In this document: piece by piece, positions 1,872 through 57,464 of the stretch | Position numbering within the stretch: the first letter of the stretch is position 1 | Layout of the letters: every line of letters begins with the position of its first letter | Assembly: GCA_045652245.1 (NCBI GenBank) | Contig: JAZRTY010000033.1 | Location: 75,863 to 139,862 of the forward strand | Direction: 5' to 3' | Length of the DNA stretch: 64,000 bases | Source: Eubacteriales bacterium | GTDB lineage: Bacteria; Bacillota; Clostridia; Oscillospirales; CAG-382 | Notes under the pieces: model-generated | What the model was told of the DNA's origin: nothing | Databases searched by the model: none | The model's input: only the letters and a program-made list of their open reading frames with translations | Position numbers and translations under genes: made by a program

Positions 1872-2006
1872 AATGTTACTATCAATAGTAATTAAACGAC
1901 TACGATTTAATTTGTTAGTAAAACAAAATAAGCAGCAGAACTATATGAAAAAATGAATAGATAACGGCAAAATAATAATACTCAATAACGAAAGGGGTGT
2001 CAGAAA

Positions 2007-4943
2007 ATGCATGATTTCCTTGCCCAATTTGAACAATATTGTAAGAATCCAGAAGTTAATTCGAACAAGGCTAATGCATATTCGAAAGCTATTGAATATC
2101 TTTGTGCCTATATGCAAATTAGTGAGATAACTCCTCAGGCTGTTGATAGTATCAGAACTACAGAGGAATATATCAGTGATAAAAATAGTTCTTTTTACAA
2201 AGATTTGCTGGCTTTTTTGACAGAACGTAGGCAGAAATCTTATTTAGAGGGTGGCTTTGTTAGAGCAGCGCTAAAACCTTTTTTTGAGTTTGCCGGCAAA
2301 TGGACAAAGACAACGAAAGTGTATGAATGGGTAGAGTTTTATATGGAACTTGCAAACAAGTTGCTTACATATAAAAATGACAGAATAGCCTTGATTCAAA
2401 TCATCAAAGATATATTTATTAAGGCGAATCTCAAATTACCAACGCTCGAAAAGGATAATAACATCATAGATGTTGATCCTTTTACATTCTTTGCATTATT
2501 TAATAAGGGGATTAAGGATAGCAATCGCATTCTGTTATTGACAGTAATAAAAGATTTGTTAGAAATCTCTGCTGTTGTACCAGAAAAATTTGACGGAATC
2601 CCTGTTGTTAATCCGATGAAAGCTACGTTTTATTATTTTCTGGGCGAAAGAAACGATGAGGATATAGATAATTTATGGGAATTCTTTGAAGTTGCCCTAA
2701 AGTATGCTGACAATAAAATGGATAGTAGCAATCAATTTGTTGAGTTGTTTAATACTGTATCAAAACAAAAAGGAATAAGCTGGAATATTACAATGGGCTT
2801 GTATTGGTTTAGACCTTATACATATGTAAATCTTGATGCAAGAAACAGAAAATTATTAGAAAATAACAATAAAAGGTTCCTGCCAAAGGTGGATATTGTA
2901 AAGCTGTTGAAGAAAGTGCCGAGCGGTGAAGAATATCTGAACATCATTACATTAGTAAAAGAAGTTATGTCAGAGTATGCGAGTTTCCCTGAACTTTCAT
3001 ATGATGCTTGGAAACAATCAACAGAAGATAAAGTAAAGTTCTTCGGTGAAGAAGGAATTACATACTGGCCGTCATTGGAAGAATACGATCCGGGAATTAC
3101 AGTTGAAATGTGGAAAGAGATCTTATCTGACAAATCCCTTACTCCTGACGAAATGTTAGATATTCTGGCTAAAATGCTGGAAATCGGCGGAGAAAGCACA
3201 TGCTATCACATGGCGGAAGTTTATGGTAAAACTCACAATTACTATAATGCAATGGGTAGCAACTTCGGAAAGCGTGTAAAAGAACGATATAACATTCCAG
3301 ACTGTTATGATAGTGAATATGACAGAATGCGTTATTATACAATTCCGTTTGTTGGAAGAGATATTATAGAAGATAATAAAACACATTATTCTTGGAAACT
3401 CAGAGATGAGTTAAAGGAGGCTTTAGAAGGAATGGATTTAACTGTAAATATTGATGTTGCAAACAAGAAAGAATTTGATAAAAACATAATTCTTTACGGA
3501 CCTCCGGGAACCGGTAAAACATATAATACTGCTATATACGCCGTAGCGATTATAGAAAATAAATCATTAAAAGAAGTTTCTTCTGAAGATTATTTTGATG
3601 TACTTGAAAGGTATAATGAATATAAAAAAGCCGGAAAAATTGAATTCACAACTTTCCATCAATCATATGGATATGAAGAGTTTATTGAAGGAATAAAACC
3701 TGTTATAAACGATAAGAGTGAAGATAATAAGGAAGTAGTTTACGAGGTTGTTCCCGGTGTGTTCAAAGCTTTTTGCGATAAGATAGAACGACCAGGAATA
3801 AAGGGAACAGTGGATACAGAATTAAATGAATATCCTACAGTATGGAAAGTGTCTTTAGAAGGAACCGGCGATAATCCTACACGTAGAGAATGTTTAGATA
3901 ATGATCACATACGTGTTGGTTATGATGAGTGTGGCGAAGATGCTACGGAGGTTATAGAAAACCAAGAAATAGGATATTCAGTATTAAATAGATTTATCAA
4001 TGAAATGTCCGTAGGAGATGTAGTTATTTCGTGCTATACAGCATCTACCATCGATGCAATAGGCGTTGTGACGGGTGAGTATGAATGGCATGATGAATAT
4101 GAGTACTATAAACGATTAAGAAAAGTAAAGTGGTTAGTTAAAGGCATTAATGAGAACATAGTAAAAATAAACAACGGAAAGAAACTTTCTAATCCGACAG
4201 TACATCGCGTTAATATAACATTGAGTGATGTTATGGATATAGTAAAAAAATACTCCCCTGAGGTTATTGAAACAGAAAATAAAGGAAACTATGTTTTCAT
4301 CATTGACGAAATAAACAGAGGCAATATTTCGAAAATTTTAGGTGAGCTCATTACTCTGATTGAACCTACAAAGAGAAAAGGACAGCCTGAAGAGATGCAG
4401 GCAAAGTTGCCTTATTCTCAAAAAGAGTTTGGGGTTCCCGACAATGTTTATATCATTGGCACTATGAACACTGCAGACAGAAGTATTGCTGCCATCGATA
4501 CGGCACTTCGTCGCAGATTCAGTTTCAGAGAAATGCTGCCTCAGGCTGATGTATTAGATGGTATTGAAGTAGAGGGTCTTTCAGTTTCTGGAATGCTTAA
4601 AAAGATGAACAGACGTATTGAAGTTTTATACGACCGTGAGCATACAATCGGACATGCATATTTTATGCCACTTCAATATGACAACTCAATGGAATGTCTT
4701 GCTGATATTTTCAAAGATAAAATAATACCGCTTTTGCAGGAATATTTCTATGAAGATTACGAAAAAATTAGACTTGTTTTGGGAGATAATCAAAAGACAG
4801 AGGAATATCAGTTTATACTTAAAGAGCAAGTTGATGAAACTGAATTATTTGGCGAAGATACTGATGTTATTGAGGATGCATATAAGTACTCCGTAAATGA
4901 AGAGGCATTTACCGTTATAGATGCATATGAAAAAATGATTTGA
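2007..4943 (+). CDS. mcrB: McrB-family AAA+ GTPase, the motor subunit of a modification-dependent restriction system, with a long N-terminal region and an internal insertion
   Basis: RBS AAAGGGG upstream of the ATG. Walker A ILYGPPGTGKTY. FHQSYGYEEFIEG. McrB signature FIIDEINRGNISKILGELITLIEP. IIGTMNTADRS. ALRRRF. Confidence 0.85.
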   Translation: MHDFLAQFEQYCKNPEVNSNKANAYSKAIEYLCAYMQISEITPQAVDSIRTTEEYISDKNSSFYKDLLAFLTERRQKSYLEGGFVRAALKPFFEFAGKWTKTTKVYEWVEFYMELANKLLTYKNDRIALIQIIKDIFIKANLKLPTLEKDNNIIDVDPFTFFALFNKGIKDSNRILLLTVIKDLLEISAVVPEKFDGIPVVNPMKATFYYFLGERNDEDIDNLWEFFEVALKYADNKMDSSNQFVELFNTVSKQKGISWNITMGLYWFRPYTYVNLDARNRKLLENNNKRFLPKVDIVKLLKKVPSGEEYLNIITLVKEVMSEYASFPELSYDAWKQSTEDKVKFFGEEGITYWPSLEEYDPGITVEMWKEILSDKSLTPDEMLDILAKMLEIGGESTCYHMAEVYGKTHNYYNAMGSNFGKRVKERYNIPDCYDSEYDRMRYYTIPFVGRDIIEDNKTHYSWKLRDELKEALEGMDLTVNIDVANKKEFDKNIILYGPPGTGKTYNTAIYAVAIIENKSLKEVSSEDYFDVLERYNEYKKAGKIEFTTFHQSYGYEEFIEGIKPVINDKSEDNKEVVYEVVPGVFKAFCDKIERPGIKGTVDTELNEYPTVWKVSLEGTGDNPTRRECLDNDHIRVGYDECGEDATEVIENQEIGYSVLNRFINEMSVGDVVISCYTASTIDAIGVVTGEYEWHDEYEYYKRLRKVKWLVKGINENIVKINNGKKLSNPTVHRVNITLSDVMDIVKKYSPEVIETENKGNYVFIIDEINRGNISKILGELITLIEPTKRKGQPEEMQAKLPYSQKEFGVPDNVYIIGTMNTADRSIAAIDTALRRRFSFREMLPQADVLDGIEVEGLSVSGMLKKMNRRIEVLYDREHTIGHAYFMPLQYDNSMECLADIFKDKIIPLLQEYFYEDYEKIRLVLGDNQKTEEYQFILKEQVDETELFGEDTDVIEDAYKYSVNEEAFTVIDAYEKMI

Positions 4944-4963
4944 TGATTTGAGGAGGTGTTATC

Positions 4964-6277
4964 GTGGCAAAGACCATCACAGTGCGTGAATATGAATCTT
5001 TTACTTGCAATAAAAATGTTCCGGGACACATTTCTTTGCCTGAGAGCACTTTTAAGAATTTAGAAGAGTTTATACTTGCGAATAGCAGCCAAGATTCCGA
5101 AGTCTTGGAATTTATGGGAATTACAGCAAGAAAAGGAATAGGCAAAGTAATAACAGCAAAAAATTATGTGGGCGTTATTTCTATGAACGATGGTACAACA
5201 ATAGAAATTTTACCCAAAATATACTCAGAACAAGACAATATTGCCGAAGCAAAAAGACTTCTCATAAAAATGCTGAAGACATTGAGAACAGCTCCGTATA
5301 AAACAATGCAAAAGACAAATGTGAATATTGACAAACTGAGTATATTTGAGATCTTTATACGAATGTTTCTCGATGAAGTATTTATTATAGTAAAGCATGG
5401 TTTGAAGTGTAATTATGAGAGCATTCAAGATAATCTTAATGTGTTCAAAGGTAAAATGTTGTTTTCGAAACAGCTAAAATATAACGTCGTGCATAAAGAA
5501 AAGTTCTTCGTGGAGTATGACGAGTTCAATACAAATCGCGCTGAAAACAGGTTGTTAAAATCAACACTCTTGTATCTTTACAAGAAAACCACATCGAATA
5601 AGAATAAAAATGATATACGAACATTGTTAAATTCATTTGTTGATGTCAACGAATCAAAGAATTACGATGATGATTTTTCTAAGTGCATAGCAGATAGAAA
5701 TATGAAGGGTTATACAACTGCACTGTTATGGAGTAAGGTGTTCTTACAAGGCAAGAGTTTTACATCGTTTTCTGGTTCGAATGTTGCTTTTGCGCTGTTG
5801 TTCCCAATGGAAACATTGTTTGAAAGCTATGTTGCGTCGATTATGAGAAAACAACTTCAAGGTACAGATTATTCATTTTCTGCGCAGGACAAAGGATATC
5901 ATTTGTTTGATAGCCCTAAAAAATTTATGTTAAGACCTGATATTGTAATAAAACAGAAGATTAATAAAATGGTATTTGTTATGGATACAAAGTGGAAATT
6001 ATTATCGTTGTCAAAAGCAAATGCCGGAATATCTCAATCTGATATGTACCAGATGTACGCATATCAGAAAAAGTATGAGGCTAAAAATATTACTTTGTTA
6101 TATCCCAAAACCTCAGAGGATATTGATGAAGACAAGCTGACTTTTAAATCGGATGACGGCGTGATAGTTAATGTGAAATTTGTTGATTTGTATGATAAGA
6201 AATCTATCGCCGATATATTAAGTTCTGTGATTGAATGTAATGAAATTTCAAGAGAGGTTGATTCTGATGAATACTAA
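4964..6277 (+). CDS. mcrC: McrC-family PD-(D/E)xK nuclease subunit
   Basis: GTG start 8 nt after GGAGG and 20 nt after the mcrB stop. Nuclease motif RPDIVI...VMDTKWK. NRAENRLLK region typical of McrC. Sits directly downstream of mcrB. Confidence 0.8.
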   Translation: MAKTITVREYESFTCNKNVPGHISLPESTFKNLEEFILANSSQDSEVLEFMGITARKGIGKVITAKNYVGVISMNDGTTIEILPKIYSEQDNIAEAKRLLIKMLKTLRTAPYKTMQKTNVNIDKLSIFEIFIRMFLDEVFIIVKHGLKCNYESIQDNLNVFKGKMLFSKQLKYNVVHKEKFFVEYDEFNTNRAENRLLKSTLLYLYKKTTSNKNKNDIRTLLNSFVDVNESKNYDDDFSKCIADRNMKGYTTALLWSKVFLQGKSFTSFSGSNVAFALLFPMETLFESYVASIMRKQLQGTDYSFSAQDKGYHLFDSPKKFMLRPDIVIKQKINKMVFVMDTKWKLLSLSKANAGISQSDMYQMYAYQKKYEAKNITLLYPKTSEDIDEDKLTFKSDDGVIVNVKFVDLYDKKSIADILSSVIECNEISREVDSDEY

Positions 6278-7709
6278 AAACTATGTTGTTCCAAAACAAA
6301 TTATAGACGCTAAAGAGGAGAAATCTCTCATCACTTTAACAGATACATATAATAAAATGATAGAGCCAAGTATTGCCAGCAAGGCGTTAAGCAAGGTTGG
6401 TGATAAAATACCTCAACCTATAAAAGATTTTACAAATGCCGCAAAAGAAAAACTTACAGATAGTGAATTGATCATTAAATCTTTAGAATTGCTTGGAAAG
6501 TCCTTTCAAACATTAGAACAGTTTGCGGCAAAAGTTACTTTAAGCGAAAAAGATATAATAAAAATGGTTAACCCAATAGTTGTTGATAACGAAATAACAT
6601 CACTGGATGAAATTTGTTTGGCAAGGGGTTATGATATATCAAAGCTTGTTGGAAAAGCAAAATTTGTTGATATAATAGCAACTTTAATTGAAGGTGGCGT
6701 TACAGGATATGCCGGGTTCGTTGGTTTGCCGTTTAATTTAGTTGCGAGTACTTTTTTATTTTATAGAGCTGTTCAATCTACAGCGTTATTCTATGGCTAT
6801 GATATAAAGAACGATCCTGCTGAATTGCAAATAGCTTCTGAAGTATTTATGAATGCTATGAGCCCTAAAAACAATAATGATAGTGAATTGTCAAGTGCAA
6901 TAGCCAAAGTTATGTTGTTGACAACTACAACCTCTGTAAAGCAAACTGTGAAAAAAGGATGGACAGCGATGGCTGAAAAAGGCGGCGTACATCTTTTAAT
7001 AACACAGATGAGAGCACTTGCTAATAGCGCAGCGAAAAAGGCGTTAGAAAAAGCTGGCAAGAAAGGCCTCGAGAAAACTGTTTTTTCAGAAGTTTTTGAA
7101 CAATTAGGAAAGAAATTAACACAAAAATCAATTGGAAAGGCTATTCCTAAGATAGGTGCATTCATTGGTGCAACGATCGATACAGCCCAGATGGTCCAGA
7201 TTTTGAAGTATGCTGACGTTTTTTATAATAAGCGATTCTTGCTCGAAAAAGAAAGCCGAATTGATTTATTATGCGCGCAACCTTCAACAATTACTACCGA
7301 AGAGTATGACATAGTTGATAATGATGATTTTGTTTATAATGTGAAAGCTAATAATGATATGATCGAATTTATTTGTTACCCTAAATGTACTACTTGTCAG
7401 AAGGCGAAAAAGTGGCTTGATGACAACAAAATCGAATATGAACTTCGTGATATAAAGGAAGATAATCCAAGTCTTGAGGAATTGACCGCTTGGTATAAGA
7501 TGAGTGGACTGCCACTTAAGAAATTCTTTAACACTTCCGGGCTTTTGTATAAGTCTATGGAGCTTAAGGACAAGCTACCTACTATGTCTGATGAAGAACA
7601 GTTAAAACTCCTTGCAACAGATGGAATGCTTGTAAAACGTCCACTTGTAGTTGGCAAAGACTTTGTTTTGGTTGGATTTAAAGAAAGCGAATGGAATGAG
7701 AAACTGTAA
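6267..7709 (+). CDS. Fusion protein: EcsC-like N-terminal domain plus C-terminal ArsC/Spx-family thioredoxin-fold (CxxC) domain
   Basis: The ATG at 6267 is preceded by AGAGAGG and overlaps the mcrC stop by 11 nt. GLPFNLVASTFLFYRAVQSTALFYGYD resembles EcsC. The C-terminus IEFICYPKCTTCQKAKKWLDDNKIEYELRDI...LVKRPLVV matches the ArsC/Spx/YffB family. Confidence 0.55.
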   Translation: MNTKNYVVPKQIIDAKEEKSLITLTDTYNKMIEPSIASKALSKVGDKIPQPIKDFTNAAKEKLTDSELIIKSLELLGKSFQTLEQFAAKVTLSEKDIIKMVNPIVVDNEITSLDEICLARGYDISKLVGKAKFVDIIATLIEGGVTGYAGFVGLPFNLVASTFLFYRAVQSTALFYGYDIKNDPAELQIASEVFMNAMSPKNNNDSELSSAIAKVMLLTTTTSVKQTVKKGWTAMAEKGGVHLLITQMRALANSAAKKALEKAGKKGLEKTVFSEVFEQLGKKLTQKSIGKAIPKIGAFIGATIDTAQMVQILKYADVFYNKRFLLEKESRIDLLCAQPSTITTEEYDIVDNDDFVYNVKANNDMIEFICYPKCTTCQKAKKWLDDNKIEYELRDIKEDNPSLEELTAWYKMSGLPLKKFFNTSGLLYKSMELKDKLPTMSDEEQLKLLATDGMLVKRPLVVGKDFVLVGFKESEWNEKL

Positions 7710-7720
7710 GAGGTAATTCT

Positions 7721-8491
7721 ATGCGATATTATGTAACGGCGGATGTGCATGGATATTTTAGTGAATTGAAATCTGCATTAGCTGAAAAAGGATTTTTTGA
7801 AGATAAAGAGCCTCATAAATTGATTATATGCGGAGATATTTATGACAGAGGTACCGAGGCATTACAACTACAAAATTTCATACTTGATTTGATGTCAAAG
7901 GATGAAATTATTCTTATACGAGGAAATCACGAAGATTTAGCATTAGATCTTTTAAACAACTGGGATAAAAGTAGCTTTTTGCAACGCTATCATTATTCTA
8001 ATGGCGCCTTAGATACTGTCTGTCAGCTTACAGAAACAAGTATTGGACAACTGTCAGTCGATTCAGATGAGGTTTATAGGAGATTTTCCAAGAATCCATT
8101 TATACAAGAAATTATCCCTGCGATGGTTGACTTTTATGAAACTGAACATTACATATTTACGCATGGCTGGATTCCTTGCGATATTATAGGCAATAGTCAT
8201 TCTAAAAGATATATTCCTATTGAGGATTGGCGCAATGCAGGCGTTCGGGCTTGGGATAATGCAAGATGGACGAATGGTATGGAGGCAGCTCATAGCGAAA
8301 TCATAGAAAACGGAAAGACTATTGTGTGCGGACATTGGCATTGCTCCTTTGGACATGCTCACTACGAGGGTGATGGTGGCGAGTTTGACAACAATCCTAA
8401 CTTCACCCCATATTACGGTAAAGGAATTATTGCTCTCGACGCATGTACACCGGTTTCAAAAATGGTTAATTGTATTGTAATTGAAGATTAA
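7721..8491 (+). CDS. Calcineurin-like metallophosphoesterase (PrpE/ApaH-type Ser/Thr phosphatase family)
   Basis: Motifs DVHG, GDIYDRG, RGNHE and GHWH appear in the canonical order. The gap to the upstream gene is 11 nt. Confidence 0.8.
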   Translation: MRYYVTADVHGYFSELKSALAEKGFFEDKEPHKLIICGDIYDRGTEALQLQNFILDLMSKDEIILIRGNHEDLALDLLNNWDKSSFLQRYHYSNGALDTVCQLTETSIGQLSVDSDEVYRRFSKNPFIQEIIPAMVDFYETEHYIFTHGWIPCDIIGNSHSKRYIPIEDWRNAGVRAWDNARWTNGMEAAHSEIIENGKTIVCGHWHCSFGHAHYEGDGGEFDNNPNFTPYYGKGIIALDACTPVSKMVNCIVIED

Positions 8492-8514
8492 AATGTAGAA
8501 TGGAGTGAGAAGTT

Positions 8515-9075
8515 ATGAGAAAGAATTTAGGAGCGAAAGCGATTTTATATCCAATGCCGGTGCTTATTATCGGTACGTATGACGAAAACGGAAAAGCAAA
8601 TGCAATGAACGCTGCCTGGGGTGGCATCAGCGAGGAAACACAGATATCTATTTGCGTGGACGACGGACATAAGACTGCAAAGAATGTTGTTAAAACCAGT
8701 GCATTTACCGTAAGTATTGCAGATGCAGATAATGTTATTGCTTGTGACTATGTTGGCATTGTTTCAGGCAACAAAGAACCTGATAAAATAGAAAAAGCAG
8801 GTTGGCACGTTACAAATAGCGAGTTTGTAAATGCTCCACTTTTTGATGAATTGCCTATGGCACTTGAGTGCAAGCTCATCAGCTATGACGAAGAAACCTG
8901 CAGACTTGTTGGTGAAATTGTAAATGTCTGCGCGGACGAAAGAATCCTTGACGAAAACGACAAGATTGATTTGAATAAATTCAGTCCTATTACATACGAT
9001 CCAGTGCACCATACTTATCGTAAAATTGGTGAGAATGTTGGCAAGGCGTTTAGTGATGGAAAGGAAATGAGATAG
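8515..9075 (+). CDS. Flavin reductase-like / flavoredoxin (FMN-binding split-barrel) protein
   Basis: LYPMPVLIIGTYDENGKANAMNAAWGG and overall length are typical of the family. RBS GGAGTGAG. Confidence 0.75.
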   Translation: MRKNLGAKAILYPMPVLIIGTYDENGKANAMNAAWGGISEETQISICVDDGHKTAKNVVKTSAFTVSIADADNVIACDYVGIVSGNKEPDKIEKAGWHVTNSEFVNAPLFDELPMALECKLISYDEETCRLVGEIVNVCADERILDENDKIDLNKFSPITYDPVHHTYRKIGENVGKAFSDGKEMR

Positions 9076-9099
9076 ATTTAATATAGGAGTAGATTATTA

Positions 9100-10350
9100 A
9101 TGTCAAAAAATAATTCAAATTTTTTTAAAGAAAAAAATGACTGGTCTTTTATTAAAGATAAACTTTTGGGTTGTTATTTGCCTCCTTATTTTCAAAAAGT
9201 TCTAATGACAAAGAAACCTATATTCTATGTAGATTGCTTTGCTGGTAAAGGAAAATTTGAAGATGGTAACGACGGTTCACCTCTAATTGCATTAAGAGTT
9301 AGAGAGGATTGCTTGAATAGGGCTAATGTTTTTCAGAAATTTGGTGCAATACAACCTTGCTTTATTGAGTTAAATCATGCTGCAGAATTGCAGAAAAACA
9401 TTAGCACGTTCGCTTCCAATTACGGAAACGCTAATGTTATATCAGGCAAATATGAAGAAACAATTTTAGACTGTCTTTCTAATAAGGACAAATATAATAT
9501 TTTTCTATACATAGATCCATATGGAATAAAAGCATTAAATTTTGAGTTGTTTAAAAAATTTAAAACATTAGGATTTAATACATTCGAAATGTTAATTAAT
9601 TTTAATTCATTTGGTTTTTTTCGTGATGCTTGCAGAGTTATGAGTGTCAATTATAGTAATGATGAAGCATTGAATTCATTGGATGATTTGGTTGAATATG
9701 AACCCACTACTTTTGACACAAACTCACAATCAGAAACACTTTTAAATTCAATTGCTGGCGGAGACTATTGGAAAGATATTGTGAAAGATTATAATAACGG
9801 TAAATTTGATGGATATAAGGCAGAACAGATATTATCCGAAAGATATAAACAGCAACTAAAAAAGCATTATTCGTATGTACTTGATTTGCCTATTCGCTTG
9901 AAAGCAGGGCAAAGACCTAAATATCGAATGATACATGCTTGTGATCACAAAGATGGATGCTTTCTAATGGCCCAAAATATGCAAAAGAGAAAAGATGAGT
10001 TGTTTTTAAATATTCAGCAAGGTGGACAACTTACACTTTTTGACATGATGACAGGATGTTCTTCCACGGCAGAAGGAGATTTTATAACAATAGAAGAAAT
10101 TACCCAAAAAGTCGGACAACTTCTTGACAATTATCACGAAATAGGATTGACTGAATACATAGCAGCTTTCGTAAATGAGTATGGCTTAATATGTGATTTT
10201 AAAATGATATACGACAGTTTAAATAGTTTAGCACAGAAAAATGAGATAAAGATTTTACGGAATCCAGCATATACAAAAAACGGAAAGCAATCTACATTTT
10301 GGGAAGAAAGCAAAGACAAAACTGTAACATTAAGGAGGTGTAAATTGTGA
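9100..10350 (+). CDS. tcmP: TcmP-like protein (three-Cys-motif partner protein) with a Rossmann/SAM-methyltransferase-like core
   Basis: The N-terminus FFKEKNDWSFIKDKLLGCYLPPYFQKVL...YVDCFAGKGKFEDGNDGSPLIAL is as I recall for NCBIfam TIGR04474. FAGxG (motif I-like) and FLYIDPYG (DPPY-like) parallel the RsmD in this window (LFSGCG / FLDPPY). The stop overlaps the next start (GTGA). Confidence 0.6.
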   Translation: MSKNNSNFFKEKNDWSFIKDKLLGCYLPPYFQKVLMTKKPIFYVDCFAGKGKFEDGNDGSPLIALRVREDCLNRANVFQKFGAIQPCFIELNHAAELQKNISTFASNYGNANVISGKYEETILDCLSNKDKYNIFLYIDPYGIKALNFELFKKFKTLGFNTFEMLINFNSFGFFRDACRVMSVNYSNDEALNSLDDLVEYEPTTFDTNSQSETLLNSIAGGDYWKDIVKDYNNGKFDGYKAEQILSERYKQQLKKHYSYVLDLPIRLKAGQRPKYRMIHACDHKDGCFLMAQNMQKRKDELFLNIQQGGQLTLFDMMTGCSSTAEGDFITIEEITQKVGQLLDNYHEIGLTEYIAAFVNEYGLICDFKMIYDSLNSLAQKNEIKILRNPAYTKNGKQSTFWEESKDKTVTLRRCKL

Positions 10351-11135
10351 AACAAGTTAAAGGATATATAAAGCGAAAATCCATGCTTTATGTAACTGGC
10401 GTGGAATATGGTGATTATACAATGAATCATGTGTTTGGATGCGCACATGGTTGTAAATATCCTTGTTATGCATATTTGCAAAAAAAACGTTTTGGACAAG
10501 TCGATGGCTATGATAAGTGGACGGAACCATATTTAGTTTCAAATACATTAGAATTATTAGATAAAGAAATTCCTAAGCTGAAAAGCAAAATCAAGTCAGT
10601 GCATTTATGTTTTACAACAGATCCATTTATGTATGGATATGATGACATCTCAGAAATAAGTATCTCGGCAATTAAAAAGATTAATGAGTTTGGCATAAAA
10701 TGTACGGTTTTAACTAAAGGGATTTTACCTAAAGAATTGGCACAATTATCTTCAGAAAACGAGTATGGAATAACTTTGGTTTCATTGAATGAGAATTTTA
10801 GAAGAGAGTATGAGCCTAATTCAGCAACGTTTGATGAAAGAATTCGCGCTTTAAGAGCTTTGCATGAATTGGGGTGCAAGACTTGGGTGAGTATAGAACC
10901 ATATCCTACACCAAATTTTATAGAGCAAAATATTAACGATATCCTTGAGTCTGTCAGTTTTTGTGATAAAATAATTTTTGGAAGAATCCATTACAATAAA
11001 AAAGCTTCGGAATATAAAAATCATAAAGAGTTTTTTAACAAAACAGCTAAGGCGGTTATTGATTTCTGTGAAGAAAGCAATATAGCATATCATATAAAAA
11101 ATGGCACTATAACCGAAGTTAAAACTGAGGAGTAA
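10347..11135 (+). CDS. Three-Cys-motif radical-SAM-like protein (COG1533/SplB-like scaffold) with atypical CX3CX3C spacing
   Basis: GTG start 9 nt after AAGGAGG, overlapping the tcmP stop. GCAHGCKYPCYA is at residues 31-42. TTDPFMY and EPNSATFDERIRALRALHELGCKTWVSIEPYP are arranged as in SPL-like radical SAM enzymes. Confidence 0.6.
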   Translation: MKQVKGYIKRKSMLYVTGVEYGDYTMNHVFGCAHGCKYPCYAYLQKKRFGQVDGYDKWTEPYLVSNTLELLDKEIPKLKSKIKSVHLCFTTDPFMYGYDDISEISISAIKKINEFGIKCTVLTKGILPKELAQLSSENEYGITLVSLNENFRREYEPNSATFDERIRALRALHELGCKTWVSIEPYPTPNFIEQNINDILESVSFCDKIIFGRIHYNKKASEYKNHKEFFNKTAKAVIDFCEESNIAYHIKNGTITEVKTEE

Positions 11136-11138
11136 ATA

Positions 11139-12401
11139 ATGATTAGTCCTAGAATTGTAAAATGTAATTTCTGTAATACAACTATACTTATGAGATTTCA
11201 AATGGGATATTTCGATATCCCGTTTGATTTTGTGTGTCCTAATTGTGGTGTTCATATTAATGGGTTTCAAAACACTGTTCAAAACCAAGATATAGAAATA
11301 CACAATGCAAGTATAATAGAAACAAAAGAACCTGTAGCTGATTATTATTTAAATTTATCAGTAGAATTGCCAAGCAGGAAGATTAGTAAGTACACATCTT
11401 ACGACGATATAATACGAGAGGGGTTCAGCCCGTTTTTGATGACAAGCCAACTATACGGTGATAACTACGAATCAATCACAAGAAGTATTAGCCTTTTCTT
11501 GAATTTAAAAAGAGAATTTTGGCCGAAAATCACACCGTTATATGATTTGTTTTTTAATAAACAAATTGAGTTAATGAAGCCTCAATTACAAATATATTCA
11601 AAAGCATATAATATCATCAATGAACTAGATGCAAGAATGTCATTGCACCAACTACTAGTTAAAATGTTTTTTAAAATTTTGCCTCCAGATTCTTTAAATG
11701 AATTTATTGATACAAGTAAAAAAATTAATGAGAGAAAAACATTGATAAAAGTAATAGAGTTAATTCATAGAATTGGTGGAGAAGAATTTTTTAATAAAAA
11801 TACAAAACGAATTGTCAAAATATTCAACAGATGGATTGATAATTTTGAAAAGTTTGCTCCGATTGTTATGCTTTCATTAGGAAATGCAAAAAATAAAATT
11901 GATAAAAATACATTTGGAATTTCAACAACTAGTCTGGATGAATTCTTGAGCTTTTATTCCGATAGTTATGAAATAATCGCAGATTTAATAGATTTAGTAG
12001 TTGCTTTAAACAACATTTCGATTCGCGGGAATATAGATACTTTTCCTTCCGATTCTACAGTAAAAAACTTTGAAAATTATCAAAAAGCTTCAAAGGCTAA
12101 CAAATTAAAATGTATTGTTGATGGCGAACCTTATAGTAGACCATTAAATTTGGAAAAAGATATTAGAAATGCAATTGCTCATTATGATTATGAATTTGAT
12201 TCTATTACACAAGAGATTCTTTTCAGAGATAATTTTAACGGGAAGCAAAAGGAAATAAAGGTATATCTTGTGGATTTTGCTTGTTTGTGCTATGACAACA
12301 TTGTTGCTCTTTTTTATTTGAATGAAATTATGTATTTATTGCATAAAATTGCTTATATCACAAAGGGATTGAAACCAAATGTAGATCCACGCTTGTTTTG
12401 A
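11139..12401 (+). CDS. Zinc-ribbon protein with a C-terminal HEPN-like (RNxxxH) motif; putative RNase effector
   Basis: Starts 3 nt after the upstream stop, with a GAGGAG RBS. N-terminal CNFC...CPNC four-Cys ribbon. DIRNAIAHYDYEF (R343..H348, nt 12165-12182) fits the HEPN Rx4-6H / Abi_2-type RNxxAH motif. Confidence 0.5.
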   Translation: MISPRIVKCNFCNTTILMRFQMGYFDIPFDFVCPNCGVHINGFQNTVQNQDIEIHNASIIETKEPVADYYLNLSVELPSRKISKYTSYDDIIREGFSPFLMTSQLYGDNYESITRSISLFLNLKREFWPKITPLYDLFFNKQIELMKPQLQIYSKAYNIINELDARMSLHQLLVKMFFKILPPDSLNEFIDTSKKINERKTLIKVIELIHRIGGEEFFNKNTKRIVKIFNRWIDNFEKFAPIVMLSLGNAKNKIDKNTFGISTTSLDEFLSFYSDSYEIIADLIDLVVALNNISIRGNIDTFPSDSTVKNFENYQKASKANKLKCIVDGEPYSRPLNLEKDIRNAIAHYDYEFDSITQEILFRDNFNGKQKEIKVYLVDFACLCYDNIVALFYLNEIMYLLHKIAYITKGLKPNVDPRLF

Positions 12402-12466
12402 GTGCATTTGTTTCATAGATGTGTTTTCGAGTCAAATCGGTATGACAACTTGTGTAAATTTTGAAA

Positions 12467-12495
12467 ATTGTACAATAATTGTACTGAATTTGTAC
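12467..12495 (+). repeat. Three phased direct repeats (A/T)TTGTAC spaced exactly 11 bp apart; candidate operator
   Basis: ATTGTAC at 12467, ATTGTAC at 12478, TTTGTAC at 12489. Followed by two copies of TTGACTATG (12506, 12520). Confidence 0.5.
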
Positions 12496-12505
12496 TATAA
12501 TTGAA

Positions 12506-12534
12506 TTGACTATGATAATTTGACTATGTATAAT
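12506..12534 (+). promoter_or_regulatory. Near-consensus sigma-A promoter
   Basis: TTGACT (12506-12511), 17-nt spacer, TATAAT (12529-12534). Confidence 0.55.
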
Positions 12535-12561
12535 ATAAAATGTAAAGAGAATATGAAAACG

Positions 12562-12589
12562 GCGGCGAGCGAAAGCTTGTCGCTTTTTT
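12562..12589 (+). terminator. Intrinsic terminator (9-bp stem, GAAA loop, T6)
   Basis: GCGGCGAGC-GAAA-GCTTGTCGC followed by TTTTTT. Two G.U pairs make it plus-strand specific. Confidence 0.7.
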
Positions 12590-12598
12590 CTTCTAAAG

Positions 12599-12622
12599 AT
12601 CGGCTTATGCCGGTCTTTTTTT
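12599..12622 (+). terminator. Second tandem intrinsic terminator
   Basis: ATCGGC-TTAT-GCCGGT followed by CTTTTTTT. Confidence 0.55.
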
Positions 12623-12680
12623 ATGCTTAAAATCAGAAGAAACTTATAAATGTCGTATTTTGTCGTACGATTTTTAAAGG

Positions 12681-13410
12681 AATTTTCAGAAAAAGGCTTC
12701 AAAAATTACCGTTTTTTCTGGTGATATATGAGAGGGTGTTTTATTAGCTGTTATTTAAATGGCGATTAGTGTCGAACGATTTTTTAAGAATTTTTCAAAA
12801 AAGGGTTGAAAAATGGCTGTTTTTTATCCTTACTTATGAGGGGTGTTCTTATAAAAGAATTTTTCAAATGTAAAGGTTTCTTTGACGTTTGACTGTTATT
12901 ATGTGCTTACATATAAAAGACTTTTAATTTTTTGAAACTATTTTTTCAATGGTAAAGGTTTTCTATACCATTGACTGATATAATCATCTTAAACAGAAAA
13001 GGATGCCAAAATAATATCAAATTATTTTTTCAAAGGGGTCAAAAAATGAACCCTTTGGCTGCTAAGATAAAGTCGCAAAAGAAAAAAATATAAATTTTTT
13101 TCAAAGGTATAAGTTTTTGTTACCTTTGGCTGTTATTATCACCGTATAAAAAGATTTTTTCTGAAAGGTACGGCGTGAAGCAACCTTTCACTGTTATTAT
13201 AAGTTTGAGCAGAAAAATAATGTCGAAAAGTTTTTTCAAGATTTTTTTGAAACATACGGTAAGCTGCATAGTTTCACTGTTATGATGATGTTAGAAAAAA
13301 TTAAAAATCTTTTTGAAACTACCAATAATTTGGGTGGTTTGGCTGCTATGATAGTAGCAGGAAGACAGATTTTTAAAAAATTTTGTTCAAAACTTAAGGT
13401 TTGGATGTCA
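12681..13410 (+). repeat. Array of about 9-10 degenerate direct repeat units (spacing 61-107 bp). Each unit is a T-tract, a hairpin with covarying stem, then CTGYTATNAT.
   Basis: Hairpin stems: 12687-96/12709-20, 12797-803/12817-23, 12865-71/12885-91, 12947-54/12966-73, 13031-37/13051-57, 13102-09/13121-28, 13162-69/13183-90, 13248-53/13271-76, 13316-23/13333-40. Units 1 and 2 (12661-12746 and 12769-12853) are longer and clearly homologous copies. Confidence 0.7.
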
Positions 13411-13733
13411 GATATGATTTAATAAAAGTACAGACAGAAAAATTTCTTGTTTGGTAAGGTTTTGACATCAAAAATGTTAAGCTTAAATTATGAAATGCAT
13501 TTCAATTGTACCTTGAAAAAGAAAGCACGCAAGATAACGGCGTTGCAGTATAACAAAAAATCGGAAACAGATAATGATACTTCTGTCCAGCCACAGTCCG
13601 AGCGTTAAGAGCGTCGCAGGCAATGGGGACAGTCCGGGCGGATGCCGGGAAGGTGGAATTCCTATGGATGTGTTGATTTCACATCTCCGTATTTTAAAAT
13701 TAAAAATGAAAAATTTTAAGGAGAAATTAAATT

Positions 13734-14129
13734 ATGAAAAAAGCTATTATTTATTTAAGAAATGAAAACAAATTTAAAATGTTCAACAATGAAGTTGAAA
13801 GAGAATTAAGAGACTTTATTGCCACACTTCCGAATGTAAAAGTAACAGATGTGTATGTTGATGTATATGACGATGATGAAAATGAGATGAATCGTGACAT
13901 TGTTTCTAAGATTTTTCGTTCTGCTAAGAATGGAGATTTTCAAATTATTCTGACTAACGACATATCCGGCCTTATGCACAATCGTCTTACTCCATGGTGT
14001 GTTGTGGACGAGCTTAATAAGCTCAGAATAAACATTATATCCAAAGCCAGCACACTTCTCGAAAAAGAAAAGCACATAAGATTAATAATGCAGCAAATGG
14101 ATAAATGGTATGCTGAAGAAATCAGCTGA
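13734..14129 (+). CDS. Small resolvase-domain-like protein lacking the catalytic serine
   Basis: RBS AAGGAGA. KKAIIYLRNENKF aligns with the serine-recombinase N-terminus (compare VAIYCRLSEEDRD in the neighbouring gene), but Ser is replaced by Asn. DFQIILTNDISGL matches the D..lv...DR region with DR lost. Confidence 0.5.
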   Translation: MKKAIIYLRNENKFKMFNNEVERELRDFIATLPNVKVTDVYVDVYDDDENEMNRDIVSKIFRSAKNGDFQIILTNDISGLMHNRLTPWCVVDELNKLRINIISKASTLLEKEKHIRLIMQQMDKWYAEEIS

Positions 14130-14215
14130 ATAATTGTAAAGTAAACTGTAATAACGGACCTGCCCTTGTTCATATTACTGTAATAGCATAATCCACTTAA
14201 AGGAGGCTGACAGTT

Positions 14216-14353
14216 ATGGACAAAAAGAAAACCCAGAAAGACTATGTAAAAAATGTTTATAAAAGCGGCGATTGTCTTGATAAGCGTCAGTTCTCCGAAA
14301 AGTGGATACAACTGATTAACAGACTGGAAAATTCCAAGTCTGTAAAAAAATAG
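14216..14353 (+). CDS. Small basic protein of 45 aa, not in the ORF track; hypothetical
   Basis: AAGGAGG at 14199-14205, then ATG at 14216. Sequence MDKKKTQKDYVKNVYKSGDCLDKRQFSEKWIQLINRLENSKSVKK, stop at 14351-14353. Confidence 0.4.
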   Translation: MDKKKTQKDYVKNVYKSGDCLDKRQFSEKWIQLINRLENSKSVKK

Positions 14354-14421
14354 ACAAGGCGATACGCTATGCGATATAATAAATCCGCAGCGGTTTGTTC
14401 TGTCCAAAAGGAGAGAAAGCG

Positions 14422-15978
14422 ATGGACAAAGTAGCAATTTATTGCCGCTTATCTGAAGAAGACAGAGACAAACTAAACAAAACAGACGATTCTGAAAGTA
14501 TAAAGAATCAAAAATCAATGCTATTGAAGTATGCGATGCAACAAGGGTGGGAAGTTTATAACATTTACAGCGACGACGATTATGCCGGTGCAGATCGAAA
14601 GAGACCTGAATTCAATCGGTTGCTTCATGATGCCGAGGAAGGAAAATTCGATATTGTGCTTTGTAAAACTCAGTCGCGATTTACACGTGAGCTTGAGCTT
14701 GTTGAAAAGTACATACACGGATTGTTTCCGCTTTGGGGAATCAGATTTATCGGGCTTGTTGATAACGCTGATACTGACAACAAAGGTAATAAAAAGGCAA
14801 GGCAGATAAACGGTCTCGTTAATGAGTGGTATCTTGAGGACATGTCTGACAGTATCAAAAGCTCACTTACAATCAGACGACAGAATGGTCAGCACATCGG
14901 TTCCTTTGCACTCTATGGATATATGAAAGATCCAAATCAGAAAGGGCATCTGATTATCGATGAAGAAGCTGCAGAGGTTGTTCGTAAGGTGTTTACATTG
15001 TTTTCGCAGGGAATGGGTAAAACCGCCATAGCAAGGTGGCTTAATGAGAAAGGAATACCTAATCCTACAGAATACAAACATCTGAAAGGTCTCAGGTACA
15101 AACAACCGGAATCAAAAAACAGTACTCTTTGGAGATACTTTGCTATTTCCGATATGTTGGTGAATGAAATTTATATCGGTAATATGGTTCAGGGCAAATA
15201 TGGTAGTGAATCTTACAAAACAAAAGAAAACAAACCACGGCCTAAAGACCAATGGTACAAAGTCGATGGGACACACGAACCGATTATAGACCGTGATCTA
15301 TGGGACAGAGTGCAGAATATGATAAAAAATCGTACAAAGCCCTTTACTACGGGGAATATAGGTATTTTCGCCGGCAAAGTGCATTGCGAGAATTGCGGTT
15401 ACACGATGCGTTCTTCAAAAAGTCGTGGTGAACATTATCTGCAATGTGCTACCAAGCACGTGGCAAATGGCGCTTGTGATGGAGCTTTTATTCCGGTAAA
15501 GAAGCTTGAAAGCATTGTAATTGATGAGCTGAATCGTATGACGAGAGAATTTCTTGATAAGGATGAGCTCGAACAGAAAATTGAGTTTGCCAAGAATCTT
15601 ACTGAGCAAAAGAAAAAGCTTGAATCCGAGGTCGAGAGGTACAGAAAGCTTGTCGACAGTACTTCGCGTGCTGTTAAGGAATGTTATCTTGATAAGGTCA
15701 AGGGCGACATTGATATTGATGAATACAATTCAATTGTCAGAGAGCTGAAAACAGATAAGGCAAAGTATGAGAAAGTCATAACTGACGGAGAGAATCAGAT
15801 AGCAGAAATTGACGAGCGCCTTGCAGCCGGAGATAACCGTCGTGAACTGATTGAGCAGTACACCAATATCACAGAACTTGACCGTGAAACTGTTGACACT
15901 ATGATTGACAAAATCGTTGTCGGCAGACGCATCAAAGGAACTAAAAATTATCCGGTTGAAATCCATTGGAACTTCTGA
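14422..15978 (+). CDS. Large serine recombinase (resolvase domain, recombinase domain, zinc ribbon and coiled coil)
   Basis: The ATG at 14422 follows AAGGAGAG. VAIYCRLSEEDRD holds the catalytic Ser. IVLCKTQSRFTRE. CENCGYTMRS...LQC zinc ribbon. Long coiled-coil C-terminus. Confidence 0.9.
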   Translation: MDKVAIYCRLSEEDRDKLNKTDDSESIKNQKSMLLKYAMQQGWEVYNIYSDDDYAGADRKRPEFNRLLHDAEEGKFDIVLCKTQSRFTRELELVEKYIHGLFPLWGIRFIGLVDNADTDNKGNKKARQINGLVNEWYLEDMSDSIKSSLTIRRQNGQHIGSFALYGYMKDPNQKGHLIIDEEAAEVVRKVFTLFSQGMGKTAIARWLNEKGIPNPTEYKHLKGLRYKQPESKNSTLWRYFAISDMLVNEIYIGNMVQGKYGSESYKTKENKPRPKDQWYKVDGTHEPIIDRDLWDRVQNMIKNRTKPFTTGNIGIFAGKVHCENCGYTMRSSKSRGEHYLQCATKHVANGACDGAFIPVKKLESIVIDELNRMTREFLDKDELEQKIEFAKNLTEQKKKLESEVERYRKLVDSTSRAVKECYLDKVKGDIDIDEYNSIVRELKTDKAKYEKVITDGENQIAEIDERLAAGDNRRELIEQYTNITELDRETVDTMIDKIVVGRRIKGTKNYPVEIHWNF

Positions 15979-16116: not shown

Positions 16117-16539
16117 TTATGAGATTGTAGCATCTGCTGCAAGGTCCTCATTAAGATCAGTAAGCAGGTCGCCCTTTATTCCAACATATTTCATATCAAA
16201 CGGTACACCCGAAGCTGCAACGGGGTAAAGGCCTGTTGTATGGTCAACAAAATAAGTTGCAAATGGCGTACCGGAAATTTGCTCAGGAGAAAGATTCCTT
16301 GTCAATTGATGAATAATAGCTGCAATTATTTCAAGATGTGCAAGCTCTTCTGTACCTATATCAGTTAAAATACCTGTAATTTTGTTATACGGGCAGCTAT
16401 ATCTCTGATGAAGATATCTCATTGAAGCAGCAAGTTCGCCGTCAGGACCACCAAGCTGACTGATTATAATTTGTGCTGTGTTTTGGTTAGGATTTTTAAT
16501 TTTTACAGGATACTGTAATTTCTTCTCATAAGTCCACAT
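16117..16539 (-). CDS. cotJC: Spore coat protein CotJC (Mn-catalase family), 3'-truncated at 140 aa, apparently split by the element
   Basis: MWTYEKKLQYPVKI...GELAASMRYL...DIGTEELAHLE. Ends ...NEDLAAD-ATIS*, where the paralogue at 56799 continues with QRAKVVYEYL...REEAH. Confidence 0.8.
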   Translation of the reverse strand: MWTYEKKLQYPVKIKNPNQNTAQIIISQLGGPDGELAASMRYLHQRYSCPYNKITGILTDIGTEELAHLEIIAAIIHQLTRNLSPEQISGTPFATYFVDHTTGLYPVAASGVPFDMKYVGIKGDLLTDLNEDLAADATIS

Positions 16540-56798: not shown

Positions 56799-57464
56799 AT
56801 GTTTAAACACGAAAAAATGCTTTTTCATCCGGTAGGTGTCGAAAAACCGAATCCTCAATATGCTGTACTGCTTCAGGAACAGCTCGGTGGTGGAAACGGT
56901 GAAATGAAAGCTGCTATGCAATATATGTCACAGAGCTTTCGTATCAAGGACCCTGAAATCAAAGATTTGTTTCTTGATATAGCAGCCGAGGAACTCGGTC
57001 ATATGGAAATGGTTGCTCAAACCATAAATTTACTCAACGGCCATGATGTAGATGCAACGCAGGTACAGGCAGGAGAAATACAAACTCACGTTCTTTTAGG
57101 TCTGAATCCAGGTCTTATAAATTCATCCGGCTACTCCTGGACAGGTGATTATGTAACAGTAACAGGAGATTTGTGTGCAGATATCCTCAGTAACATTGCA
57201 TCAGAGCAGCGTGCAAAGGTAGTATATGAATATCTATACCGCCAGATTAACGATAAAAAAGTAAGAGAAACAATAGATTTTCTCCTGAATCGTGAAGAAG
57301 CACACAACCAGATGTTCAGTGATGCCTTCAATAAAGTCCAAAACAGCAGTTCAAACAGAGATTTCGGAACAACGAAGGCTGCTAAAATGTACTTTTCCCT
57401 TTCAGACCCCGGCCCGAATACCTTTGCAAATAATGAAACGGTTGCCCCGTCTTTTAATAAGTAA
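56799..57464 (+). CDS. Manganese catalase family protein (CotJC-like paralogue, full length)
   Basis: GEMKAAMQY, AAEELGHME, EQRAKVVYEYL, NREEAH. Confidence 0.85.
   Translation: MFKHEKMLFHPVGVEKPNPQYAVLLQEQLGGGNGEMKAAMQYMSQSFRIKDPEIKDLFLDIAAEELGHMEMVAQTINLLNGHDVDATQVQAGEIQTHVLLGLNPGLINSSGYSWTGDYVTVTGDLCADILSNIASEQRAKVVYEYLYRQINDKKVRETIDFLLNREEAHNQMFSDAFNKVQNSSSNRDFGTTKAAKMYFSLSDPGPNTFANNETVAPSFNK

Follow-up and report, generated by a model that had tools for sequence, protein, structure and literature searches.

Seven gene-less, promoter-like hairpin modules ahead of a large serine recombinase operon next to an interrupted cotJC gene

In this study, we asked what kind of element is formed by a run of degenerate, hairpin-forming repeats in an Eubacteriales genome (contig JAZRTY010000033.1, positions 75,863 to 139,862 of the forward strand; this whole stretch of 64,000 nucleotides is referred to as the window and is numbered from its first letter). 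The repeats lie in a gene-free region of 1.3 kb, without a conserved open reading frame (ORF), between the last cargo gene of a chromosomal element (end at 12401) and the gene for a 131-amino-acid protein (start at 13734), which is followed by a large serine recombinase gene. In an earlier reading, made from the letters of the window and referred to here as the sequence-only reading, about ten tandem hairpin units were described and it was stated that no feature class fits them. We show here that units with a conserved, in-register hairpin are real and beyond chance. As to their role, we favour, with moderate confidence, the explanation that the array consists of seven sigma-A-type promoter modules without a -35 hexamer, which would all direct transcription to the right, into the pemK leader and the operon of the recombinase, with the hairpins possibly serving as leaky attenuators.

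Seven units, here called B units, make up the array. They occupy window positions 12854-13352, all on the plus strand and arranged head to tail at spacings of 61-86 bp, and in register each is a gapless module of 49 nt composed of a 10-nt A/T tract (AAAAAATTTTTTSAAA), a 29-nt hairpin span and the tail CTGnTAnnAT. Unit 1 (12854-12902) has the stem TCAAATGT/ACGTTTGA followed by CTGTTATTAT, with a predicted start at 12909 and a score of 61.6 bits against a covariance model of the B unit. In unit 2 (12936-12984; stem TCAATGGTA/TACCATTGA; predicted start 12991; 57.1 bits) the tail reads CTGATATAAT at 12975-12984; this is the perfect -10-like motif of the sequence-only reading, which had the motif right and its position wrong by one base. 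Unit 3 (13020-13068; predicted start 13075; 55.9 bits) carries TCAAAGGG/CCCTTTGG and then CTGCTAAGAT, while CTGTTATTAT is found again in unit 4 (13091-13139; stem TCAAAGGTA/TACCTTTGG; predicted start 13146; 64.7 bits) and unit 5 (13152-13200; stem TGAAAGGT/ACCTTTCA; predicted start 13207; 49.1 bits). Unit 6 (13238-13286; stem TGAAAC/GTTTCA, then CTGTTATGAT; predicted start 13293; 48.7 bits) is a long form with a TGTCGAA box 60 nt before the hexamer, and the array ends with unit 7 (13304-13352; stem AAACTACC/GGTGGTTT, then CTGCTATGAT; predicted start 13359; 54.3 bits). All seven stems that had been listed are thus present where they had been placed.

The trailing motif that had been reported after the hairpins is present too: TTTSRCTGNTATNAT with at most one mismatch has seven matches in the window, all on the plus strand and inside 12888-13352, compared with 0.69 expected in window shuffles. 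With its filters off, the covariance model finds exactly seven copies in 64 kb and nothing else above 20 bits. The count of about ten units therefore has to be lowered to seven. The last two of them (13370-13480) are conserved modules without a convincing hairpin, and the first two, which had been taken for longer homologous copies, do resemble each other (76% identity over 58 nt) but form a separate repeat family that the covariance model misses. Tandem Repeats Finder calls no tandem array at the locus because the copies are only 60-73% alike. A feature that had not been noticed before is that the hairpin span stays at 29 nt, whether a 5-bp stem encloses a 17-nt loop or a 12-bp stem a 5-nt loop; stems measure 5-12 bp, and loops reach 17 nt. 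This fixed span points to a spacing constraint at the level of DNA, as expected from promoter geometry.

The hairpin itself was evaluated on 34 distinct units, taken from this locus and its relatives. Paired cells amount to 88.9% in these units versus 70.1% in shuffles (0 of 500 shuffles as high), 47 double-sided changes were observed versus 14.2 in shuffles, and the covariation score is 0.443 versus at most 0.142 with slid partners; similar results were obtained on 53 distinct model hits. RNAalifold independently predicts the same helix, and the hairpins fold with a mean energy of -8.7 kcal/mol and a mean z of -3.45. Six of the seven array units have at least eight of nine pairs in register, which holds for none of the 88 other TGnTAnnAT sites on both strands of the window. 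The claim that the hairpins are conserved by compensatory changes is borne out by these comparisons, with pairing and double-sided changes far above the shuffled and slid controls. Of the refuting conditions set in the sequence-only reading, two were examined, and neither applies: the covariation is significant, and the units are not spread over the genome (see below). The argument from T.G pairs for selection on the plus strand did not hold, as the stems contain 10 G.T versus 6 A.C cells, which is no significant polarity, and the folding energies of the plus and minus strands (-8.68 versus -8.28 kcal/mol, p = 0.10) do not differ significantly either.

Compensatory conservation with little conservation of the inner stem sequence is also a property of attC sites and of single-strand origins (sso), and the setting is that of a mobile element. 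The hairpins might accordingly work in single-stranded DNA, as promoters or primer sites of the Frpo or sso kind after transfer or rolling-circle replication, or as attC-like sites that are recognised by their structure. We regard this as highly improbable. The -10-like sequence is located 3' of the stem, unpaired and on the non-template strand, so that a folded strand cannot present a duplex promoter, and the stems, with their lengths and loops given above, are much smaller than Frpo-type structures. Neither the 16 kb of the element that fall in the window nor the surroundings of related arrays contain a gene for a relaxase, Rep, HUH protein or tyrosine integrase, no cassettes lie between the units, and the pairing shows no significant strand bias. 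Single-strand promoters of the Frpo type and single-strand origins do not fit, given the unpaired -10-like sequence, and integron attC sites, one of the candidates proposed earlier, are disfavoured because cassettes and a tyrosine integrase are lacking and the only recombinase is of the serine type. Large serine recombinases use duplex sites. Cruciform extrusion was rejected on inspection, as the loops are too long.

What, then, is conserved in the units besides the helix? We derived a position profile from 65 distinct units with their flanks, with the hexamer placed at -12 to -7. T-12, A-11, A-8 and T-7 are invariant (65/65), whereas -10 and -9 vary. The TG at -15/-14 is present with T in 58 and G in 60 of the 65 units. 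After the hexamer comes a 6-nt discriminator, in which the five bases before -1 are low in information; position -1 is a pyrimidine (C or T) in 64/65 and +1 a purine (A or G) in 63/65, and an A-rich stretch follows +1. Further upstream, the pattern A6 T6 S AAA occupies -56 to -41, AAAAAATTTTTTSAAA ending with the AAA at -43 to -41. This tract matches 12-13 of the 14 specified positions of the upstream (UP) element consensus AAAWWTWTTTTNNNAAA, the subsites of which are located near -42 and -52 (PMC2412878). The place of a -35 hexamer is taken by the inverted repeat, at -45 to -17; columns -36 to -30 show no TTGACA-like consensus in the 65 units, and the promoter scan lists no B unit. The TTT at -21 to -19 is invariant. 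We know of no promoter role for a TTT at these positions; that it does not vary is explained by the fact that it pairs with the AAA of the UP tract, which is likewise invariant.

A tRNA promoter in the same window, with TTTTTTGAAA, TTGACT, a 17-bp spacer and TGaTAAAAT, has its upstream tract at the same distance as the B units. More generally, the tRNA promoters of the window, which are sigma-A promoters with an extended -10 and an UP element, resemble the B units in the TGnTAnnAT pattern, in the distance of the TTTTTTGAAA-type tract and in a purine at the start position about 7 nt past the hexamer; they differ in having TTGACA or TTGACT at 17 bp, where the B units have an inverted repeat instead. 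With four independent features of sigma-A promoters in exact register, the B units are best read as predicted promoters without a -35 hexamer. A stack of promoters had been among the candidates named in the sequence-only reading, and it gains support from the UP-like tract, the TG, the TAnnAT hexamer and the pyrimidine/purine step at the start, all in register, as well as from the geometry of the tRNA promoter. It also fits with units carrying their own promoters that arrays persist without the far-upstream promoter of the leader in three related loci (L047, L054 and L099). Several other ways of reading regulatory signals into the units were rejected. A -35 hexamer inside the loop was dismissed on inspection, the use of the TTGACT of a 3' arm by a downstream -10 would require an inconsistent spacing, no consistent match was found to TcdR-type, sigma-E/K/H-type, CodY, ComK, LexA or CcpA sites (judged by their consensus sequences), and small ORFs in or between units are not conserved.

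The covarying helix, the A-rich and U-rich single-stranded flanks around each hairpin and the location of the array on the same strand between a regulated promoter with terminators upstream and the cis-regulatory pemK RNA downstream could also mean that the array functions first of all as a structured RNA, namely as a long leader or a set of short processed or terminated RNAs, whose units of U-tract, hairpin and CUGUUAUGAU bind a protein, as a sponge or antitermination target, or have a regulatory function, and the promoter likeness would be secondary. We consider this unlikely. A structured RNA has no reason to reproduce the sigma-A pattern, with its invariant -12, -11, -8 and -7, variable -10 and -9, TG, pyrimidine at -1 and purine at +1, and UP register, and a constant 29-nt span combined with a variable stem length would be atypical of it. 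In addition, the upstream promoter is missing from some loci with arrays, different unit types do not share conserved loops, and Rfam, searched at permissive E-values, gives no family for the array. Tandem small structured RNAs, as proposed in the sequence-only reading, may nevertheless exist as a consequence of the promoter reading. A type III antitoxin RNA (ToxI-like) was rejected: Tandem Repeats Finder reports no array, the units are degenerate and the genes downstream are resolvase-like.

The fixed geometry of the units would also be expected of protein sites on duplex DNA, that is, operators of a dimeric regulator, accessory sites for the serine recombinase or for the serine-less resolvase-domain protein encoded downstream, or a centromere- or iteron-like array. 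In agreement with this, the dyad centre is fixed, the outer parts of the half-sites (T-S-AAA and TTT-S-R) are about 21 bp or two helical turns apart, TGTCGAA-like boxes are found at fixed distances and a recombinase module is adjacent. However, recognition of half-sites does not predict that inner stem positions change jointly on both sides, the spacings (61, 66, 71, 82-86 and 95-107 bp) do not correspond to whole helical turns, the array has no rep or par gene as a neighbour, and the same array occurs with recombinases that are only 25% identical and with different small proteins. We think it rather improbable that such sites are what the array represents. Iterons and centromeres in particular, which had also been suggested earlier, are disfavoured by the unphased spacing (61-107 bp), variable half-sites and inner stem covariation, and were rejected given the 60-73% identity of the units and the lack of rep or par genes beside the arrays.

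Taken together, a constant span reflects a constraint on duplex DNA and covariation a constraint on a single strand, and the simplest joint fit is a promoter whose upstream half folds once it has been transcribed. According to this promoter explanation, each module would provide a full UP-like element (-56 to -41), an extended -10 (TG n TAnnAT, -15 to -7) and a purine start six bases past the hexamer. The inverted repeat would be selected as an RNA stem-loop in transcripts begun at upstream modules; placed immediately 5' of the U-rich CUGUUAUKAU, it could act as a leaky terminator or attenuator that shields each promoter from incoming polymerases. The array could then give rise either to short RNAs, about 50-100 nt in length, or to read-through that reaches the pemK attenuator in damped form. 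A precedent for this logic is provided by the promoter/stem-loop cassettes of T4-like phages discussed below, from which the array differs in that its cassettes have no genes between them.

A number of points weigh against this explanation. Without a -35 hexamer, promoter strength could be low or depend on an activator, neighbouring units as close as 61 bp would be expected to exclude each other sterically, and one would have to explain why selection keeps seven promoters without genes. In about ten units hardly anything is left of the stem (0 to -2 kcal/mol), and counts of cells such as the 47 double-sided changes overstate the number of independent events, since the aligned sequences are related and represent roughly 8-12 distinct stem types. 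As the polarity of the hairpin is not significant, it does not by itself establish a plus-strand RNA. Finally, the terminator scan calls no B-unit hairpin, the stems being AU-rich, the loops up to 17 nt long and a U-run lacking; for this reason the attenuator role is weakly grounded. The sequence-only reading had already stated that the hairpins are not terminators, and we agree in so far as the layout of an intrinsic terminator is concerned, with the T-run 5' of the stem and a tail in which about 5 of 10 bases are U. For both strands, intrinsic terminators were rejected as the T-run is on the wrong side.

The distribution of the units provides a further view on the array. About 19 related loci were found in gut Oscillospiraceae and Clostridia, with 0-8 copies of the B unit and all oriented toward a pemK motif and a large serine recombinase. 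The 131-amino-acid protein belongs to a rare family (8 clusters in the protein collection), which is always found between the pemK motif and the recombinase, and the contigs of these eight clusters share the order of the leader: promoter and short terminated transcript, A units, B units, C modules, pemK motif, small protein and large serine recombinase (A and C denote other modules, described below). A scan of 185,579 species genomes with a single-unit pattern of the CAAAGG type matched 39 loci. Seven of them bear arrays (L062, L072, L079, L081, L083, L089 and L093, all in metagenome-assembled genomes of gut Oscillospiraceae, Clostridia or Eubacteriales); another, L068 in a metagenome-assembled genome of Bacillota, has one weak match that the unit model does not confirm, and the remaining 31 were rejected as chance or coding matches. 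Across these species genomes, the CAAAGG-type unit occurs only in the arrays. Scattering over the genome, as of a dispersed palindrome of the repetitive extragenic palindromic (REP) or bacterial interspersed mosaic element (BIME) type, was rejected on this ground and as the 64 kb hold no match outside the array. When metagenomes were scanned with a pattern of the last module of the leader (13510-13554), five further loci were recovered, all with arrays. A pemK motif lies 3' of the array wherever the contig reaches, except in L054, which is apparently truncated.

Outside this context the searches were negative. When plasmids and phages were searched with the region by blastn, the pemK motif was the only part to match. 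No B units were found in 36 IMG/VR loci whose recombinases are 45-79% identical (64-71% in most cases), and exact look-ups of two window proteins gave no match. A two-unit pattern scan of viral contigs produced a single match inside a gene, which was rejected as due to chance.

As had been suggested as a check, unit number was compared between loci, and it varies from 0 in L046, where the array is absent, to 8 in L089. Unit order is partly conserved between loci, with hybrid and shuffled arrangements: L054 has a unit with the 5' arm of one type and the 3' arm of another, and the module order is shuffled in L100. In five loci (L072, L079, L081, L083 and L098), the same leader of array and pemK motif is joined to a different small protein and to recombinases that share only about 25% identity with that of the window. 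The leader thus behaves like a regulatory module that is exchanged between elements. Such variation in copy number, the hybrid units and the absence of the array from L046 would also be consistent with a neutral by-product, that is, duplications of AT-rich promoter sequence by unequal crossing-over whose copies have no function, in the way of the promoter-dense AT-rich islands known in acquired DNA (PMC3661553; PMC7054387). We find this very unlikely, as the loops of paralogous units have diverged fully and yet the pairing, span, UP tract, TG, hexamer and start dinucleotide are kept, unit order is conserved between loci, and even elements with unrelated recombinases have leaders that are conserved at the nucleotide level.

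The array is embedded in a leader with several other conserved parts, all on the plus strand. At its head, the promoter scan predicts a sigma-A-type promoter, TTGACT-17-TATAAT (12506-12534; 11/12 match), preceded by TTGTAC direct repeats, and the homologous TGTTACAAT promoter is found in L041, L049, L072, L079 and L096-L098. Two tandem intrinsic terminators follow at 12561-12625 according to the terminator scan, the second being GATCGGYTTATGCCGGTC plus a T-run. This second terminator forms the conserved left border of the module and is kept in L047 and L054 despite a replaced upstream part. From this promoter, predicted to be strong, a transcript of some 50 nt would run to the two terminators. 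The stretch 12466-12625, which most related loci have conserved, is a candidate small RNA or attenuated leader. The two A units (12647-12853), the repeat family mentioned above, each contain TGTCGWACGA, T/A tracts, an A/U-rich inverted repeat (CAGAAAAA at 12687-12694 and TTTTTCTG at 12713-12720) and TATGAGRGGG, and copies are present in 10 of 14 related loci scanned. Downstream of the B units, two conserved, promoter-like C modules lie at 13370-13495, TTGTTCAAA..TTAAGGTTTGGATGTCA..ATATGAT and TTGTTTGGTAAGGTTTTGACATC..TGTTAAGCT; their best match to the B-unit model is weak (13375-13418, 15.8 bits, E = 1.3). The highly conserved last module (13510-13554), with TTGA(A/C)A, the GC-rich stem-loop GCACGC..GCGTTGC and TATAAC, is located directly 5' of the pemK motif.

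The pemK RNA motif (RF02913) was identified at 13571-13667 with 58.4 bits, directly downstream of the array region and on the same strand, and a terminator-like hairpin at 13666-13686 after it suggests an attenuator. The conserved 5' AUAAUGAUAC of the motif resembles the B-unit UGUUAUGAU, but the array is not part of the motif, and the pemK loci of Monoglobus and of Tn5397-like Enterococcus plasmids are without an array. In several relatives, the first pemK hairpin has an extra structured insertion of about 110 nt (L050 4007-4211, L052 2841-3046 and L081 1697-1900). The downstream operon (13734-15978, plus strand) begins with the gene for the 131-amino-acid protein (13734-14129), which resembles the catalytic domain of resolvases; the usual serine position reads AIIYLRNEN, so that the catalytic serine is lacking, and there is no DNA-binding domain. 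It is followed by a 45-amino-acid ORF (14216-14353) and by the gene for the large serine recombinase (14395-15978), all on the plus strand.

The recombinase gene ends 140 bp from a fragment of cotJC, a gene of the Mn-catalase family that is interrupted by the element: its N-terminal approximately 140 codons are found at 16117-16539 on the minus strand, beside an intact cotJB. The C-terminal half of cotJC was not found in the window, which places the left end of the element beyond it and makes the element larger than 16 kb. Three relatives (L042, L043 and L055) are inserted in the same gene, and the insertion resembles the gene-intervening elements of sporulation genes. The window holds a second, intact Mn-catalase/CotJC-like gene at 56799-57464 (plus strand), with a product 31% identical to B. 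subtilis CotJC. The cargo of the element (75-12401, plus strand) is defence-like and includes a STAND NTPase with an S1 domain, a McrB-like AAA protein with McrC, an EcsC-ArsC fusion and a TcmP-like protein with a radical SAM enzyme. In relatives the cargo at the same place differs and includes, for example, SIR2, ASCH, Ham1, AAA_21, YobI-ATPase and NUDIX/SWIM.

The leader contains motifs like the core of the 0A box, TGTCGAA (PMC3485338; PMC2731898). Two Spo0A-box-like heptamers with a 3-bp spacer (TGTCGTA TTT TGTCGTA) are located at 12651-12667 on the plus strand; no other such pair exists in the 64 kb, and seven related loci have the same pair at the head of the array. Single TGTCGAA motifs are present at 12770-12776 and 13221-13227, again on the plus strand. 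Across 16 arrays, these motifs number 46 in forward versus 1 in reverse orientation and occur at 4.4 per kb versus a background of 0.16 (about 27-fold), and in units of the long form a distance of 59-61 nt separates the box from the hexamer downstream. Their fixed positions suggest that the stack may be switched on at the onset of sporulation, and control by Spo0A~P would make sense because the element must leave a sporulation gene. TGTCGAA cores, including a tandem pair with a 3-bp spacing, next to sigma-A-like promoters without a good -35 and in a setting linked to sporulation are shared with Spo0A-controlled promoters with a weak or displaced -35 (spoIIG type) and with the 0A boxes near phi29 promoters (PMC2731898; PMC3485338). 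Compared with spoIIG, the boxes of the array, which are sequence matches, are at different positions, about -69 and further upstream, and only some units have one.

Two extensions of the promoter explanation can be put forward, though we give the pair of them a low probability. The array could be a developmental gate, in which Spo0A~P-responsive promoters without a -35 are split by leaky RNA hairpins and the number of modules sets a threshold or delay for the recombinase that would cut the island of defence genes from cotJC. Alternatively, it could be an array of overlapping small RNA genes, each module producing one short hairpin RNA whose terminator tail is the -10 of the next promoter.

Is there, then, a known class to which the array belongs? 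The statement that none fits was too strong, as composite cassettes of promoter and stem-loop have been described in T4-like phages under the name of promoter-early stem-loops (PeSLs) (PMC2839356; PMC4122927). These combine a sigma-70 promoter and an AT-rich upstream tract with a stem-loop that often lies between -35 and -10 or over the promoter boxes (PMC2839356; PMC4122927), and they have been shown to act both as promoter and as terminator (PMC2839356). PeSLs and the array have in common the fusion of a promoter, or a promoter-like sequence in the case of the array, with a stem-loop in one short motif, the AT-rich upstream tract, G.T pairs in the stems and many diverged copies, and one group of phages has PeSLs with A3-4G3-loop-C3T3-4 stems. 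PeSL copies are recombination points that create indels and mosaics; the array shows copy numbers of 0-8, hybrid units and shuffled order, which might have arisen in a similar way. PeSLs flank small genes (ORFans) in hyperplastic regions of the phages and have a -35 hexamer, whereas the array units, 61-107 bp apart, have no conserved ORF between them and no -35. Also unlike PeSLs, the array has a strictly fixed hairpin span of 29 nt and stands in the leader of a serine recombinase operon in a chromosomal element of Firmicutes, and its promoter and terminator roles are putative. The promoter islands of acquired E. coli DNA (PMC3661553; PMC7054387) resemble the array in that promoter-like sites are densely packed in acquired, AT-rich sequence; their sites are irregular, overlapping and on both strands, while those of the array are discrete homologous modules on one strand with a covarying hairpin. 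We suggest that the array is best filed as gene-less, tandem, -35-less kin of the composite promoter/stem-loop cassettes, located in a serine recombinase leader, and not as a new class of element.

Should the modules prove active, one sequence of 49 nt would be read twice, as DNA through an UP element and an extended -10 and as RNA through a stem-loop before a U-rich tail, and would be repeated without genes. This would extend the idea of the promoter/stem-loop cassette from T4-like phages to chromosomal elements of gut Clostridia, and it would provide a way in to the control of elements that carry varied, partly defence-type cargo inside a sporulation gene. The region also supplies a context for the uncharacterised pemK RNA motif, together with a set of natural promoter variants that differ by compensatory changes in the hairpin.

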